Of a DNA stretch of 64,000 bases, positions 26,845-31,675 are shown in pieces (positions within the stretch are counted from its first letter, which is position 1; the number at the start of each line of letters is the position of its first letter). The stretch comes from Escherichia phage skuden: the sequence record MN850585.1; one strand, 5' to 3'. The notes under the pieces are model-generated. The model searched no databases and was not told where the DNA came from. It saw nothing but the letters and a program-made list of their open reading frames with translations. Both the position numbers and the translations under genes were made by a program.

Positions 26845-26920
26845 TGGAGAATCCGAAGGGACTCGAACCCTTATAAACCTGTTTTGCAGACAGGCACATA
26901 GCCATTTCTGTCACGGATTC
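26845..26920 (-). tRNA. tRNA-Cys (anticodon GCA)
   Basis: hand-folded cloverleaf; T-loop TTCGAGT; 7-bp acceptor; loop CTGCAAA; CCA encoded. Confidence 0.65.
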
Positions 26921-26924
26921 AAAT

Positions 26925-27017
26925 TGGAGGAAGATACCAGACTTGAACTGGTACACCGATTTCTCAGCTACTGGCAGTTTAGCAAACTGCTCCCTTACCT
27001 TTTAGGGTTAATCTTCC
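26925..27017 (-). tRNA. tRNA-Ser (anticodon GCT), class II
   Basis: 93 nt; acceptor GGAAGAT/ATCTTCC; T-loop TTCAAGT; anticodon loop TTGCTAA; long variable arm. Confidence 0.6.
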
Positions 27018-27018
27018 A

Positions 27019-27756
27019 TTATTTCTGTAATGCGCTCTTCATTTCTGGTGTTGCAATAGTGTCGATTACACCAGTTTTACAAGCATCATCAAACCAGTCT
27101 GGTAAGATACCTGCTAAGAACCCATTGATATTCGTTTTAAGGTACTCTGCAATAAGGGCAGCTTCTTCTTCAATCATCTGCACAACTTCATCTGCATAAG
27201 CTGTAATCTTTGAGATACCTTCATTAATCTTACTAACAGCCTGATTAGCTAAATCAGAAACAGTATCAAGACCCTTATCAATAGCGTCTTGTAAGTCACT
27301 TAACACACTGTTAACACTGTCTAGTGTGCTGTTAATCATGTCAATAGCTTTTTGACCATACTCTGTAGCAACACCCATAATACCACTGAATGGTGTACAA
27401 CCAACTTGTTCTCCTGCTGCACCCATAACATTGGAATATCCCTTTGCTACCTGCATACGTGATGAAAACTCATCAATAGACTTTTGACCATAGTCTGTTA
27501 GGGTCTTAGTGGTTGCTGTAGTGCTTGTCAGGCTTGTTGTAAAGCTGTTTAGAAGGACTGTTGTAAGTCCAGCAGCAACAAGCTTCTCCTTCATTGTAGG
27601 GTCTGTTACAGAGCTAATAGAGCTTACAAGTGATGTAGAGGCAGCTACGGTTCCACCGAGAACTGCTGCACCAGTAATAAGTGGGTTAGAAAACCCTTTA
27701 CCGGTTTTTAAGAGATTAAAAATCTCCTTACCTTGTTCTGTCATCTCTTTCATTAA
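27019..27756 (-). CDS. hypothetical protein (Ser/Thr-rich) inside tRNA cluster
   Basis: track ORF 27019..27969 has an N-terminal extension overlapping tRNAs; likely start at MKEMTEQ (27756). Confidence 0.4.
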   Translation of the reverse strand, partial: LMKEMTEQGKEIFNLLKTGKGFSNPLITGAAVLGGTVAASTSLVSSISSVTDPTMKEKLVAAGLTTVLLNSFTTSLTSTTATTKTLTDYGQKSIDEFSSRMQVAKGYSNVMGAAGEQVGCTPFSGIMGVATEYGQKAIDMINSTLDSVNSVLSDLQDAIDKGLDTVSDLANQAVSKINEGISKITAYADEVVQMIEEEAALIAEYLKTNINGFLAGILPDWFDDACKTGVIDTIATPEMKSALQK

Positions 27757-27769
27757 GCACCTTTGAAAT

Positions 27770-27845
27770 TGGTAGTCCAGTGGGATTTGAACCCTCTTCT
27801 CATGTTTTTCAGACACGCGCTTTACCATATAAGCTACTTGGACTA
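27770..27845 (-). tRNA. tRNA-Phe (anticodon GAA)
   Basis: perfect 7-bp acceptor TAGTCCA/TGGACTA; T-loop TTCAAAT; anticodon loop CTGAAAA. Confidence 0.6.
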
Positions 27846-27850
27846 TAAAT

Positions 27851-27926
27851 TGGGGTGACCTACGGGATTTGAACCCGTATAGACCATGTTCACAGCATGG
27901 GTCATTACCATTTATGATAAGGCCAC
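27851..27926 (-). tRNA. tRNA-His (anticodon GTG)
   Basis: T-arm ACGGG-TTCAAAT-CCCGT; anticodon stem CCATG/CATGG with loop CTGTGAA. Confidence 0.65.
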
Positions 27927-27957
27927 ATTTAAGGACTCTCGTAAGAACCCTTAGAAG

Positions 27958-28033
27958 TGGCAGCGGCATAAGGATTTGAACCTTAATAGGACAGTTTCAG
28001 AGACTGTTGCATTGCCAGTTATGCTATACCGCT
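27958..28033 (-). tRNA. tRNA-Gln (anticodon CTG)
   Basis: D-stem GCAT/ATGC; anticodon stem ACAGT/ACTGT with loop CTCTGAA; T-arm TAAGG-TTCAAAT-CCTTA. Confidence 0.6.
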
Positions 28034-28038
28034 AAATT

Positions 28039-28117
28039 TGGTACTCCATATCGGATTCGAACCGATACATAACACAGATTTTAAGTCTGGCCTCTCTGCC
28101 AATTGGAGTAATGGAGC
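28039..28117 (-). tRNA. tRNA with Leu-type anticodon TAA but class-I length (isotype uncertain)
   Basis: T-arm ATCGG-TTCGAAT-CCGAT; 7-bp acceptor; anticodon stem CCAGA/TCTGT with loop CTTAAAA; no long variable arm. Confidence 0.5.
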
Positions 28118-28119
28118 AT

Positions 28120-28195
28120 TGGCGGGGGATGTTGGAATTGAACCAACTTCTTCGATTTCAAAGACCGAGGTTTTAACCTTGTAAACTAATCCCCT
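28120..28195 (-). tRNA. tRNA-Gln (anticodon TTG)
   Basis: T-arm GTTGG-TTCAATT-CCAAC; anticodon stem TCGGT/ATCGA with loop CTTTGAA. Confidence 0.55.
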
Positions 28196-28203
28196 TTAAA
28201 TCT

Positions 28204-28761
28204 TTACTTTCTCAGTGGATGAATAAAGAATGCCAACATAACTCTTTCCCTTGAGAATGCTCTTTCTTCTGGGACAACGCTTTTTAGTTTCCATCCAATA
28301 TAAATTCTCCAGTAAAACTGTTTACCAAAGACTTTAATTGATGGGATAAAAGCGAATAATCCCCAAGCATTGCTATTCCACATTAGGAGATAACCAGTCT
28401 GATTATCTTCAGGGTCAGAACTTACGTTGATATTGCCTTTCCACTTAGTAACATCTTTTACATCTCTTCCTAATACATGGTAAGAGAAGTTATAAGCTTT
28501 GTTTCTCCAGAGCCATCCAACTCTCTGCATGTAGACACCCAGCTTACCAATCTTTCTAATCTTAGCCCATCTTTTAACGTGACCTTCATCACCATCAATT
28601 GGGTTGTCATAGGTCTCCATCCATCTGAATCCAAAAGGTAGGTGTCCTTTCTTCTCACTGTAGAATGGAACTACGAAAGGTGCTAAGATGACTGCTAGGG
28701 TTGCTGCAAATGGCTCTAGTAAAGCTAGGAAAATCCATGAAGCATACTTCAAATATCTCAT
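28204..28761 (-). CDS. integral membrane protein encoded inside tRNA cluster
   Basis: 185 aa; hydrophobic segments ASWIFLALLEPFAATLAVILAPFVVPF and GLFAFIPSIKVF; Trp-rich. Confidence 0.45.
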   Translation of the reverse strand: MRYLKYASWIFLALLEPFAATLAVILAPFVVPFYSEKKGHLPFGFRWMETYDNPIDGDEGHVKRWAKIRKIGKLGVYMQRVGWLWRNKAYNFSYHVLGRDVKDVTKWKGNINVSSDPEDNQTGYLLMWNSNAWGLFAFIPSIKVFGKQFYWRIYIGWKLKSVVPEERAFSRERVMLAFFIHPLRK

Positions 28762-28780
28762 CTAAATAGCCTCTTAAAAT

Positions 28781-30342: not shown

Positions 30343-30418
30343 TGGTACTGTGAGAAGGATTCGAACCTTCTTCCTTTCGGTTATCAGCCGAATGCACATC
30401 CATATGTGCTTTCACAGC
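30343..30418 (-). tRNA. tRNA-Ile (anticodon GAT)
   Basis: T-arm GAAGG-TTCGAAT-CCTTC; D-stem GCAC/GTGC; anticodon stem TTCGG/CCGAA with loop CTGATAA. Confidence 0.7.
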
Positions 30419-30420
30419 AT

Positions 30421-30497
30421 TGGAGGTTCAGATGGGAATCGAACCCACATTCATAAGGCTTATGAGACCCTTGCATTACCTTATCTGCGACTGAACC
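30421..30497 (-). tRNA. tRNA-Met (anticodon CAT)
   Basis: acceptor GGTTCAG/CTGAACC; T-loop TTCGATT; anticodon loop CTCATAA. Confidence 0.6.
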
Positions 30498-30501
30498 ATT
30501 T

Positions 30502-30577
30502 TGGTAGAAGTGGAGGGATTCGAACCCATCGCCTGTCAGATTAAAAGTCTGCCGCATCACCATTCTGCTACACTTCC
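30502..30577 (-). tRNA. tRNA-Lys (anticodon TTT)
   Basis: acceptor GGAAGTG/CACTTCT; anticodon loop CTTTTAA; close paralogue of tRNA at 29275. Confidence 0.55.
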
Positions 30578-31005
30578 ATTAAATTATCTTTGTAGATAAG
30601 CTACCCAGACTTGCTTAAGGTCTGTAGCGATGTGCCTTTTTGGGTTTAAATCTAGAATTTACCCTTTCACCCTTTGTGGTCGCATACTCACAGGTAAGCT
30701 TAATAACTTATCTACAAAGATAATTACCAGACCGTTGTTTATCATCTTAAGTGCTACCATTACACCAACTCGACATCTGCCGAGTGAAGGAATCGAACCT
30801 TCTCCTTTTCTTTACCGAGAAATAGATTGTTTAAGTTTTGCTGTAAACGGTCTTCTGTAAATTTGTTGAGCCAGACCAAGTTTTAAATTTTTCAAAATTA
30901 AATTGGCTTGAAATTTTAAGTAACTTGCTGTATTTGGTCTTCTGCTCCTTTAAAGGATACTCGTAAGAACTCTTTAAGGGAGGGGCTAAACAGCCCTCTC
31001 AAAAT

Positions 31006-31083
31006 TGGCGGTTACGAAGGGATTTGAACCCTCATCATCTCCCGTGACAGGGGAGTATTTTAACCAAATTAAACTACATAACC
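31006..31083 (-). tRNA. tRNA-Asp (anticodon GTC)
   Basis: anticodon stem CTCCC/GGGAG with loop CTGTCAC; T-arm GAGGG-TTCAAAT-CCCTT. Confidence 0.65.
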
Positions 31084-31088
31084 TTTAT

Positions 31089-31176
31089 TGGTGTGCCGTG
31101 TAGGAGTCGAACCTACCGAGTCTCAATGACAAGGGATTTACAGTCCCCACCGCTACCATCTACGGGATAACGACAC
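31089..31176 (-). tRNA. tRNA-Tyr (anticodon GTA), class II
   Basis: 88 nt; T-arm GTAGG-TTCGACT-CCTAC; anticodon stem GGGGA/TCCCT with loop CTGTAAA; long variable arm. Confidence 0.6.
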
Positions 31177-31185
31177 ATTTAAATT

Positions 31186-31262
31186 TGGCGGTTAGTCAGG
31201 GATTCGAACCCTGTGCCATTCGCTTAACAGGCGACCGCACATACCTTATGTGCTTCCTAACC
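31186..31262 (-). tRNA. tRNA-Asn (anticodon GTT)
   Basis: T-arm CAGGG-TTCGAAT-CCCTG; D-stem GCAC/GTGC; anticodon loop CTGTTAA. Confidence 0.65.
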
Positions 31263-31345
31263 ATGTTTAGTATTACCAGACCGTATCTTTCAATTTTTCC
31301 GCTAAAAATTTAATAAATATTGCTGTAAACGGTCTTCTGTAAATT

Positions 31346-31422
31346 TGGAGGCGGGTGCAGGAGTCGAACCTGCCGATACCATGCTAATGAGACATGTGAG
31401 ACGCCCTTTCTCTATACCCGCA
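31346..31422 (-). tRNA. second CAT-anticodon tRNA (initiator Met or lysidine-Ile candidate)
   Basis: T-arm GCAGG-TTCGACT-CCTGC; anticodon stem CATGT/GCATG with loop CTCATTA; unpaired 1-72. Confidence 0.55.
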
Positions 31423-31513
31423 ATTCTTAATGACCAGACCAAATCTCTTCTTTGTCCGATTTACCTTCAGATGAATAAGATTAAGTTTGCTGTAATTGGT
31501 CTTCTGTCAAAAC

Positions 31514-31591
31514 TGGCGTTCCAGAAGGGATTTGAACCCTCAGATATCCACTTTGAAAGAGTGGTGACTATACCATTTTGTCTACTGGAAC
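31514..31591 (-). tRNA. tRNA-Glu (anticodon TTC)
   Basis: acceptor GTTCCAG/CTGGAAC; anticodon stem CCACT/AGTGG with loop CTTTCAA. Confidence 0.65.
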
Positions 31592-31598
31592 ATTAATT

Positions 31599-31675
31599 TG
31601 GTCTCTGTTGGAGGACTTGAACCTCCGGCCTTACCGCCCCAAACGGAACGCTCTACCAAGCTGAGCTAAACAGAG
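31599..31675 (-). tRNA. tRNA-Pro (anticodon TGG)
   Basis: T-arm GGAGG-TTCAAGT-CCTCC; D-stem GCTC/GAGC; anticodon loop TTTGGGG. Confidence 0.6.

Follow-up and report, generated by a model that had tools for sequence, protein, structure and literature searches.

The tRNA operon of Escherichia phage skuden (sequence record MN850585.1) contains three genes for transfer RNAs (tRNAs) that combine leucine anticodons with the short variable loop of type I tRNAs. The operon spans positions 26845-31675 of the 64,000 nucleotides (nt) that were analysed, referred to here as the window. We suggest that the three short genes probably encode functional leucine tRNAs (tRNALeu), which would be charged by the leucyl-tRNA synthetase (LeuRS) of the host. 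The case is built on the genes and their folds, their identity nucleotides, their conservation and covariation, the wide distribution of the form and the codon bias of the phage. Expression of these tRNAs, their leucylation by the LeuRS of Escherichia coli or Salmonella and their use in translation are presumed from there. The 4.9-kb tRNA region is 96-97% identical by BLAST to Escherichia phages VpaE1 and finno, to the REP phages and to Salmonella phage Mushroom, and more than 200 further Felixounavirus genomes match it at 96-97% identity. By these matches the window belongs to a Felix O1-like lytic myovirus and the studied stretch is its tRNA operon, the gene order of which is kept in Felixounavirus, Mooglevirus and Suspvirus.

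The three leucine genes lie on the minus strand at 28039..28117 (anticodon UAA, 79 nt with the encoded CCA, variable loop of 7 nt, Rfam score 47.5 bits), 28781..28858 (anticodon CAA, 78 nt, variable loop of 6 nt, 44.0 bits) and 29358..29435 (anticodon UAG, 78 nt, variable loop of 5 nt, 40.0 bits). Over the whole 64-kb window, their matches to the Rfam tRNA model have E values of 5e-7 to 6e-5. An original prediction made from the sequence alone had placed the anticodons TAA, CAA and TAG at exactly the positions now called by ARAGORN. It had also proposed that the long variable arm is missing. Structural segmentation of the three tRNAs beside E. coli leuZ, leuW and leuX and the tRNALeu of phage T5 bears this out: the variable loop measures 7, 6 and 5 nt in the three window tRNAs and 13-15 nt in those of E. 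coli and T5. None of the three has the long variable arm of the type II architecture, a normal feature of bacterial leucine tRNAs. The serine (93 and 90 nt) and tyrosine (88 nt) tRNAs of the cluster retain their long arms. Each leucine tRNA folds into a cloverleaf with acceptor, D, anticodon and T stems, a T loop of the form GTTCRANYC, U33 and a purine at position 37, and A73 is followed by an encoded CCA in all three. The D arm consists of a 3-bp stem and an 11-nt loop, and U48 is the last base of the variable loop. A14, the A15:U48 Levitt pair, G18G19 and A20a are present in the same layout as in leuZ, leuW and leuX. The anticodon stems carry compensatory changes between paralogues, as anticipated, and are still paired (CCAGA/UCUGU with one mismatch, GCAAG/CUUGU and CCAUC/GUUGG). 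Rather than other anticodons or pseudogenes, the records of relatives annotated with tRNAscan-SE give tRNA-Leu for all three genes. In a published tRNAscan-SE 2.0 analysis of the related phage Sf14, the isotype model agrees with the anticodon for all three leucine tRNAs (PMC12482277).

Short leucine tRNAs are shared well beyond the window. BLAST recovered the Leu(taa) gene from 215 phage records at an identity of 99% or more, and it has no match in 5,426 complete E. coli genomes, so it is not a host or resident-prophage gene. The trio of tag, caa and taa anticodons on short leucine tRNAs occurs in all Ounavirinae genera examined. Starting from BLAST matches of Leu(taa), the form was also traced to an Aeromonas T5-like phage and Lactobacillus phage LpeD, each with its own tag/caa/taa trio of 74-77 nt. 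T5 itself has one leucine tRNA of 85 nt with a long arm. In coliphage OSYSP (Tequintavirus, MF402939.1), both tRNALeu genes are of type I. They have the anticodons tag and taa and are 77 nt long (3693-3769 and 9291-9367 of the stretch compared), and the 3' half of the window Leu(tag) closely resembles the OSYSP Leu(tag). OSYSP is also said to be the source of a phage-derived tRNALeu that reassigned TCR codons to leucine in E. coli, which we note as a lead only; if this is right, leucylation of such a tRNA inside E. coli has already been demonstrated. A pattern combining the leucine D loop, a leucine anticodon and class-I spacing to the T loop matched at least 120 IMG/VR contigs, in which ARAGORN called at least 183 leucine tRNAs of 74-79 nt. 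Short leucine tRNAs of the listed loci use all six leucine anticodons, and the serine and tyrosine tRNAs stay long. Short and long leucine forms occur together in 30 of the 120 listed contigs, which had been selected by the pattern. A control sample of viral contigs anchored on tRNA-Arg(UCU), and hence not selected via leucine, has 5 short tRNAs among 42 leucine tRNAs (in 2 of 31 loci). The type I leucine form is a minority in viruses and far from rare.

The viral sequences are constrained at the positions expected of a leucine tRNA. Among 121 viral type I tRNALeu, de-duplicated at approximately 85% identity, A14, A15, G18, U33, A35, G53, T54, C56, A58 and C61 are invariant (121/121). Nearly invariant are A73 and U48 (120/121 each) and A20a (119/121). 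Stem cells are paired in 96.1% of the alignment, and double changes are found in 19 of 20 pairs. All four helices covary, and the covariation score reaches 1.006, where shuffles score 0.23 and slid partners 0.15-0.20. The fixed nucleotides are those reported as read by LeuRS (PMC9976931). By these comparisons, viral type I tRNALeu evolve as working tRNAs.

The form also occurs in bacterial chromosomes. When one genome of each prokaryotic species was searched with this pattern, the matches listed were mostly from Actinomycetota, for example Nocardioides, Nocardia, Mycobacterium, Amycolatopsis, Bifidobacterium and Corynebacterium. Among these listed matches, mainly with taa and caa anticodons, 98 of 120 loci have a single tRNA in 8 kb, which points to ordinary chromosomal genes in those prokaryotes. 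The D arm UA-NNC-CAAUYGGCAGA-GNN is common to the Leu(taa) and Leu(caa) of the Felix O1-like phages, to LpeD and to the actinobacterial chromosomal genes, and 117 of the 120 listed genome stretches, mostly from Actinomycetota, contain it. Type I tRNALeu is thus widespread in phages and Actinomycetota and not peculiar to the studied cluster. Hundreds of records already carry annotations of the leucine genes, and type I tRNALeu had been described before from mitochondria and Streptomyces. Our search of the full-text literature found no description of short-arm tRNALeu in phages or of its breadth.

How could such tRNAs serve the phage? The leucine tRNAs would share the sigma-70-type promoters and the transcripts of the whole cluster and would mature in the same way as their neighbours. 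Host LeuRS could charge them through A73 and the geometry of the D loop and elbow (A14, A15:U48, G18G19 and A20a), leaving the anticodon and the extra arm unread. The UAA and CAA anticodons would decode UUA and UUG, and the UAG anticodon CUA and CUG, perhaps also CUU. Bacterial tyrosyl-tRNA synthetase (TyrRS) requires a long arm. The arm might accordingly be expendable in leucine tRNAs and not in serine or tyrosine tRNAs, given that TyrRS and seryl-tRNA synthetase (SerRS) need it and LeuRS does not, which could explain why only the leucine tRNAs of the cluster are short. The identity set of E. coli LeuRS comprises A73 and features of the D/T elbow; the long arm is dispensable, and minimal arm-less variants are charged (PMC9976931). 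Codon usage points the same way. Leucine codons in the genes of the window are TTA (27%), CTT (27%), CTG (14%), TTG (13%) and CTA (12%). In E. coli, CTG makes up about 50% of leucine codons. The three anticodons cover the codons TTA, TTG and CTA preferred by this AT-rich phage, which uses them much more than E. coli does, and this fits the classic codon-supply model. The tRNA operon is functional in close relatives. A tRNA-Ser(UGA) of their own enables the Felixounavirus phages REP5-12 to grow on serine-recoded E. coli, and co-evolution selected a mutant of REP12 in which part of the operon is triplicated (PMC12269064, PMC13596443).

Several observations weigh against a role of the short tRNAs in leucine supply. 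The type I tRNALeu(CAA) of Streptomyces coelicolor was not leucylated in vitro by E. coli LeuRS, and charging required a Streptomyces-type leucine-specific domain (PMC6614811). The D-arm design of the phage leucine genes is that of the actinobacterial type I genes, so efficient charging in E. coli cannot be assumed. The anticodon loops of two of the tRNAs deviate from those of the host: Leu(UAG) has A37 where the host has G37, and Leu(CAA) has C38. The tRNA genes of phage Bas63 are mostly non-essential in laboratory hosts (10.1101/2024.10.10.617714). The three arm-less genes are strictly conserved in hundreds of phages growing in E. coli, Salmonella, Shigella and Citrobacter, and the phage case sits uneasily with the specificity reported for E. 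coli LeuRS. If enterobacterial LeuRS charges arm-less leucine tRNAs, the identity rules for leucine would be refined, and the phage genes would offer compact, naturally validated tRNALeu scaffolds for genetic-code engineering. If it does not, something else happens in infected cells.

Loss of the arm might have been neutral or economical, with an arm-less lineage spreading among phages by gene exchange and providing nothing beyond ordinary codon supply. We regard this as possible, if clearly the less likely account. Such a lineage could have arisen in Actinomycetota or be shared with them, as suggested by the D-arm motif common to the Felix O1-like Leu(taa) and Leu(caa), LpeD and the actinobacterial genes. 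The likeness of Leu(tag) to its OSYSP counterpart is also suggestive of exchange, and the arm is dispensable in vitro (PMC9976931). The economy would be trivial, however: about 10 nt are saved per gene, and the genome, at 87 kb, has room for long non-coding spacers. The coexistence of short and long forms in 30 of the 120 listed, pattern-selected viral contigs also speaks against this account. The E. coli enzyme reportedly prefers long-arm substrates (PMC6614811), and a cost of losing the arm would be expected.

The arm might instead have been lost by selection, the tRNAs keeping the same decoding role while evading nucleases or other enzymes, of the host or of competitors, that are specific for type II tRNAs. 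The leucine supply of the phage would then persist when the tRNALeu of the host is destroyed. We consider this rather unlikely. Escape of phage tRNAs from anticodon nucleases (PARIS, retron PtuAB and others) by sequence changes is documented, and selective cleavage of type II tRNAs by human SLFN11 has been described. The cluster adjoins a Ro60-like gene reported as countering a defence system, and the deviating anticodon loops of Leu(UAG) and Leu(CAA) would suit evasion as well. Our literature search found no bacterial nuclease that chooses tRNAs by the long arm, however, and the bacterial Schlafen studied cuts anticodon arms of type I tRNAs. Selection against long arms would also have to spare the serine and tyrosine tRNAs, which retain them. 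Type I tRNALeu is a normal chromosomal gene in many Actinomycetota and needs no defence context, and only 5 of 42 leucine tRNAs are short in the viral sample not chosen by leucine.

The leucine genes could also be unused in translation, either as pseudogenes or as uncharged mimics, for example decoys that occupy nucleases or tRNA-binding proteins such as Ro60. The cluster clearly has tRNA mimics, namely a YrlA-like element and the odd tRNA-like genes of relatives, and the rejection of the Streptomyces type I tRNALeu by E. coli LeuRS (PMC6614811) would fit uncharged molecules. A decoy or decaying gene would not be expected to keep U33, A35, the purine at 37 and A73 near-invariant, to encode an intact CCA end, to covary in four stems over 121 sequences, to be confined to the six leucine anticodons or to remain at least 99% identical in 215 phage records, and we consider this reading very improbable. 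Recoding of leucine codons through charging with another amino acid is extremely improbable: nothing positive speaks for it beyond the length off the leucine norm and an identity that rests elsewhere than the anticodon ignored by LeuRS, and the tRNAs lack the G3:U70 of alanine and the G73 with long arm of serine, keep the leucine-specific D-loop set intact and would face A73-accepting synthetases that all need their own anticodon bases (PMC9976931).

The leucine tRNAs are part of a nearly complete set. ARAGORN, run on the window, called 25 tRNA genes in 26845-31675, all on the minus strand. Together with the 83-nt gene discussed below they make 26, in line with the original prediction of about 26. 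The Rfam tRNA model (RF00005, gathering score 29 bits) places 23 of the 25 above the gathering score. Running ARAGORN in intron mode, or with its threshold reduced to 80% or 70%, added only calls of low quality or on the opposite strand. The first genes of the cluster are tRNA-Pro(tgg) at 31599-31675 and tRNA-Glu(ttc) at 31514-31591. They are followed by a tRNA with anticodon CAT (31346..31422) and by tRNA-Asn(gtt) (31186-31262), tRNA-Tyr(gta) (31089-31176, 88 nt with long arm, in Rfam only below gathering) and tRNA-Asp(gtc) (31006-31083). Further along are tRNA-Lys(ttt) (30502-30577), a second CAT tRNA (30421-30497), tRNA-Ile(gat) (30343-30418), tRNA-Arg(tct) (30019..30095, 62.7 bits), tRNA-Ser(tga) (29691..29780, 90 nt with long arm, 33.2 bits), tRNA-Lys(ctt) (29275-29350), tRNA-Ala(tgc) (29194-29269), tRNA-Gly(tcc) (29113-29187), tRNA-Thr(tgt) (29030-29105) and tRNA-Val(tac) (28860-28934). 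The cluster ends with tRNA-Gln(ttg) (28120..28195), tRNA-Gln(ctg) (27958-28033), tRNA-His(gtg) (27851-27926), tRNA-Phe(gaa) (27770-27844), tRNA-Ser(gct) (26925-27017, 93 nt with long arm) and tRNA-Cys(gca) (26845-26920). All of these are supported by both ARAGORN and Rfam apart from the CAT tRNA at 31346..31422, which was called by ARAGORN and has no Rfam match either at the gathering score or at E up to 5. This atypical tRNA has an initiator-like U1 x C72 mismatch, U37 and U73, and no three consecutive G-C pairs occur in its anticodon stem. Phage Sf14 is listed with the same change of A37 to U (PMC12482277). The other CAT tRNA is of elongator type (Met or Ile2) and also has U73.

Other features expected from the first inspection were recovered as well. 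Two CAT tRNAs had been foreseen and are among the ARAGORN calls, and the weak T-stem noticed in two lysine tRNAs corresponds to an A:C mismatch at the first T-stem pair of both. Two protein genes, both on the minus strand, indeed interrupt the cluster. One encodes a 185-aa DUF7338 protein with a hydrophobic N-terminus (28204..28761), annotated as a holin or membrane protein in relatives, and the other a 244-aa DUF7217 protein (27019..27753). Comparison with relatives revealed variants of individual tRNA genes. In Bas63 (MZ501086.1, 303-395 of the stretch compared), the 93-nt long-arm serine-type tRNA has the anticodon TCT and not GCT. If real, a serine-type body with TCT would read the arginine codons AGA and AGG. 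REP9, Mushroom and FG1m have an odd 82-nt tRNA-like gene in place of tRNA-Arg(UCU), with the same anticodon loop and a long insert, and in REP9 tRNA-Asp is swapped for a version with a 15-nt anticodon loop. The odd REP9 genes lie at 3524-3605 and 4517-4602 of the stretch compared. In Michonne and phiSUSP1, tRNA-Arg is directly followed by an extra tRNA-like gene. This gene has a CCA end, a T arm and the acceptor stem GGUCAAG/CUUGACU, and owing to an internal insert its total length is about 120 nt. On this comparison the tRNA cluster is a mosaic among relatives.

Tryptophan is the sole amino acid absent from the 25 called tRNAs, and we read the 83-nt gene at 29794..29876 (minus strand) as a divergent tRNA-Trp(CCA) with an expanded D region and putative charging. 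The gene had been proposed as a tRNA candidate from the sequence, and it proves conserved with compensatory changes in related genera, though missed by standard tools. ARAGORN gave no call at default and no clean call at lowered thresholds, and there is no Rfam tRNA match to E 5. Every Ounavirinae locus aligned (Felixounavirus, Mooglevirus and Suspvirus) keeps the gene. Between genera, the acceptor stem changes from AUGGGAC/GUCCCAU to AGGGGUG/CACCCCU with pairing maintained, the anticodon stem takes the forms AACGG/CCGUU, GUAAG/CUUAC and AGAGU/AUUCU, and the T stem is GGGG/CCUC or UAGAG/CUCUA. In the window the anticodon loop is UUCCAAC; finno, Mooglevirus and SUSP1 have CUCCAAA. A C31.A39 mismatch is present, and the odd D region, enlarged to some 20 nt, does not form a canonical D arm. 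In the sister genus, Erwinia Kolesnikvirus, a canonical tRNA-Trp shares the core CGGCUUCCAA, and the 83-nt gene aligns with it. Tryptophan identity in E. coli depends on the anticodon CCA, G73 and A1-U72, and the 83-nt gene has A1-U72 and G73 and encodes its CCA end. For E. coli tRNATrp, the A1-U72 pair is given in the identity-review table (PMC9976931).

The spaces between the tRNAs hold predicted RNA genes of two further kinds, resembling transfer-messenger RNA (tmRNA) and Y RNAs. The tmRNA-like RNA (30096..30300, minus strand) lies between tRNA-Ile and tRNA-Arg, with its tag frame (30249..30217) behind a near-consensus promoter. After AUAAAU, the frame GCA AAC GAC AAU GUU UUU CUG GCA GUA GCU UGA encodes ANDNVFLAVA and a stop. 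The stop codon is in a hairpin loop and is followed by two covarying hairpins. The Rfam tmRNA model matches 30096..30300 below threshold (17.3 bits, E 5e-4), with only the mRNA-like part aligned. BLAST with the core of the element found 659 phage records, for example of Kuttervirus, Klebsiella, Gamaleyavirus, Aeromonas and Erwinia phages, and the element is unannotated in all matching records inspected. Eight sequences (3 from Ounavirinae and 5 from other phage groups) keep the 10-codon frame with a stop at the same place, as in ANDNTFLAVA, ANDDVVLMAA, ANEEMYLAVA and ANDAQFLAVA. Codon differences among the eight are 48 synonymous and 76 non-synonymous in the tag frame, against 1/136 and 18/119 in the other two frames. 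The pattern of synonymous change and eight covarying base pairs in the RNA support a real gene. We thus regard the element as a widespread, unannotated phage RNA that probably encodes a tmRNA-type tag. The only phages for which an exhaustive tmRNA survey lists ssrA are mycobacteriophages and Bacillus phage G (PMC4131195).

The tRNA-like part of a tmRNA was sought as well. ARAGORN -m at default found no alanine-accepting tRNA-like domain (G3:U70 acceptor stem, T arm and CCA). At lowered thresholds it borrows neighbouring tRNAs for this domain, which we rejected, the neighbours being complete tRNAs. The 83-nt RNA was rejected in this role too. In the Klebsiella and Kuttervirus homologues, no tRNA is called within 700 nt on each side. 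A possible CCUUAG/CUAAGG pairing is not conserved. The promoter upstream of the tmRNA-like RNA and tRNA-Arg (30299..30327, minus strand; sigma-70-like, TTGACA-17-TATAGT, 11/12) is kept in every Ounavirinae locus aligned. finno, Mushroom, Bas63 and FG1m have an insertion of about 89 nt between the tmRNA-like RNA and its promoter, which is absent from the window. A small hairpin, AAGGGYUCUUACGAGAGUCCUU on the minus strand, occurs in three copies after tRNA or RNA genes (27928-27952, 30103-30127 and 30950-30974), and the tmRNA-like element of an Erwinia phage ends with a hairpin of the same type. Its role might lie in RNA processing or in termination.

Four repeats of the form CAGAAGACC-NNN-UACAGCAA ... 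NNN'-GGUCUGG lie between the tRNAs, all on the minus strand, and fold into the same bulged terminal helix. The longest (30724..30859) is a YrlA-like Y RNA candidate with the bulged terminal stem CAGAAGACCGUU / AACGGUCUGG and the motif UUACAGCAA. Three shorter Y-RNA-like elements at 30868..30946, 31273..31341 and 31431..31508 have the same bulged terminal stem and conserved motif (ACAGCAA at 30868..30946). In the longest element a T arm is followed by a 7-bp acceptor-like stem closed by a loop and then by a D arm. The closed stem occurs in three sequence versions in relatives, each of which pairs. YrlA Y RNA has the same order of T, closed acceptor stem and D and is encoded beside Ro60 (PMC4201824). 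Directly upstream of the cluster, a minus-strand gene (31841..33256) encodes a Ro60-like RNA-binding protein of 471 aa with DUF2828 and DUF7788 (Pfam; PHROG 'RNA-binding protein'). The protein is 98% identical to Bas63 gp130 and has no match among Protein Data Bank (PDB) sequences. According to a preprint, gp130 is structurally Ro60-like and counters the 'ppl' defence, and some Bas63 'tRNAs' are speculated to be Y RNAs (10.1101/2024.10.10.617714). The four elements are distinct from the annotated tRNAs and supply concrete candidates, with putative Ro60 binding, for the Y RNAs only guessed at in the published screen. The long element alone gave chance-level matches only against Rfam at E up to 10, with no YrlA-type family. 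The motif GAAGACCNNNTWCAGCAA was found in IMG/VR in Felix O1-like contigs and otherwise mostly as chance matches, giving no evidence outside Ounavirinae; one chance match that recurs in another phage group is in a stretch that is probably coding. The conserved 9-mer UUACAGCAA lies beside a short terminal stem and has exactly the core sequence of the motif known from Dictyostelium Class I RNA, and Rfam RF01414 matches the Y-like elements weakly (13-20 bits, E of about 4-6). This likeness may be a coincidence.

The remaining features frame the operon. Two sigma-70-like promoters (31822-31794 and 31731-31702, together 31702..31822, minus strand) lie upstream of tRNA-Pro. A long GC-clamped hairpin followed by a U run, terminator-like as read from the sequence, is found after tRNA-Cys (26746..26808, minus strand), and the record of phage Michonne annotates a terminator at the matching place. 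The terminase large-subunit gene (24799..26415) is just downstream of the cluster. Two further structured stretches were noticed on the minus strand. A long hairpin of about 30 bp (window ~29440-29526, z = -3.6) lies just upstream of tRNA-Leu(UAG) and has only a weak plant-miRNA-precursor-like match in Rfam. A 146-nt stretch (30580-30725) between tRNA-Lys(UUU) and the long Y-like element has a multi-branched fold with a 24-bp terminal closing stem (-47.9 kcal/mol, z = -5.9) and was assigned to no family.

The whole 5-kb stretch could be seen as an island of RNA-based counter-defence and translation takeover, a speculative proposal that we hold to be unlikely as a whole. It would join a near-complete re-engineered tRNA set, the Ro60/Y-RNA module and the domain-less tmRNA-like tag template. 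The re-engineered tRNAs would be the arm-less tRNALeu, the tRNAs with altered anticodon loops, the initiator-like tRNA with U37 and the aberrant tRNATrp. Loss of the leucine arm would then give resistance to, or orthogonality from, host factors acting on type II tRNAs, and in infected cells ribosome rescue would be diverted or disabled by the ANDNVFLAVA template.

Each component has known counterparts. The operon resembles T4/T5-type coliphage clusters, which are dense tRNA arrays of lytic phages with small open reading frames and stable RNAs interspersed; T5 annotates 'tRNA-like stable RNAs' in its tRNA cluster. Like tmRNA (SsrA), the phage RNA has a resume context, AUAAAU|GCA, with no start codon needed, and an alanine-started tag of 10 codons (ANDNVFLAVA; the E. 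coli tag is ANDENYALAA). As in tmRNA helix 5, a hairpin loop holds the stop codon, and structured hairpins come after it. The phage RNA differs from tmRNA in being without a detected tRNA-like domain and in a tag ending in AVA instead of LAA. The Y-like elements share with the bacterial Y RNAs YrlA and YrlB a bulged terminal stem, and the gene beside them is Ro60-like, possibly a Ro60 orthologue. Only the longest has, like YrlA, a tRNA-like module in the order of T, closed acceptor stem and D, and the shorter elements are without it. The GNCGAAN0-1G motif of published Y RNAs is not evident in the four phage elements, where the conserved motif is UUACAGCAA, and in contrast to Rsr/Ro60 systems the phage protein belongs to DUF2828/DUF7788 and is no annotated TROVE protein.

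For the leucine tRNAs, T5 with its single long-arm tRNALeu of 85 nt differs from its relative OSYSP, which has two short tRNALeu. Animal mitochondrial tRNALeu also lack the long arm, and mitochondrial recognition goes through A73 and A14 (PMC9976931). Mitochondrial tRNALeu are degenerate and have a dedicated LeuRS, whereas the phage leucine tRNAs keep canonical D and T loops. The one published bacterial case is the tRNALeu(CAA) of S. coelicolor (PMC6614811), with which the phage tRNAs share a short variable loop, a leucine anticodon and A73. Its D arm is designed like that of the actinobacterial chromosomal genes described above. The Streptomyces gene is chromosomal and single-copy and is served by a LeuRS with an adapted leucine-specific domain, while the phages carry three isoacceptors and grow in enterobacterial hosts. 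In S. coelicolor, type I tRNALeu coexists with type II tRNALeu in one cytoplasm (PMC6614811).

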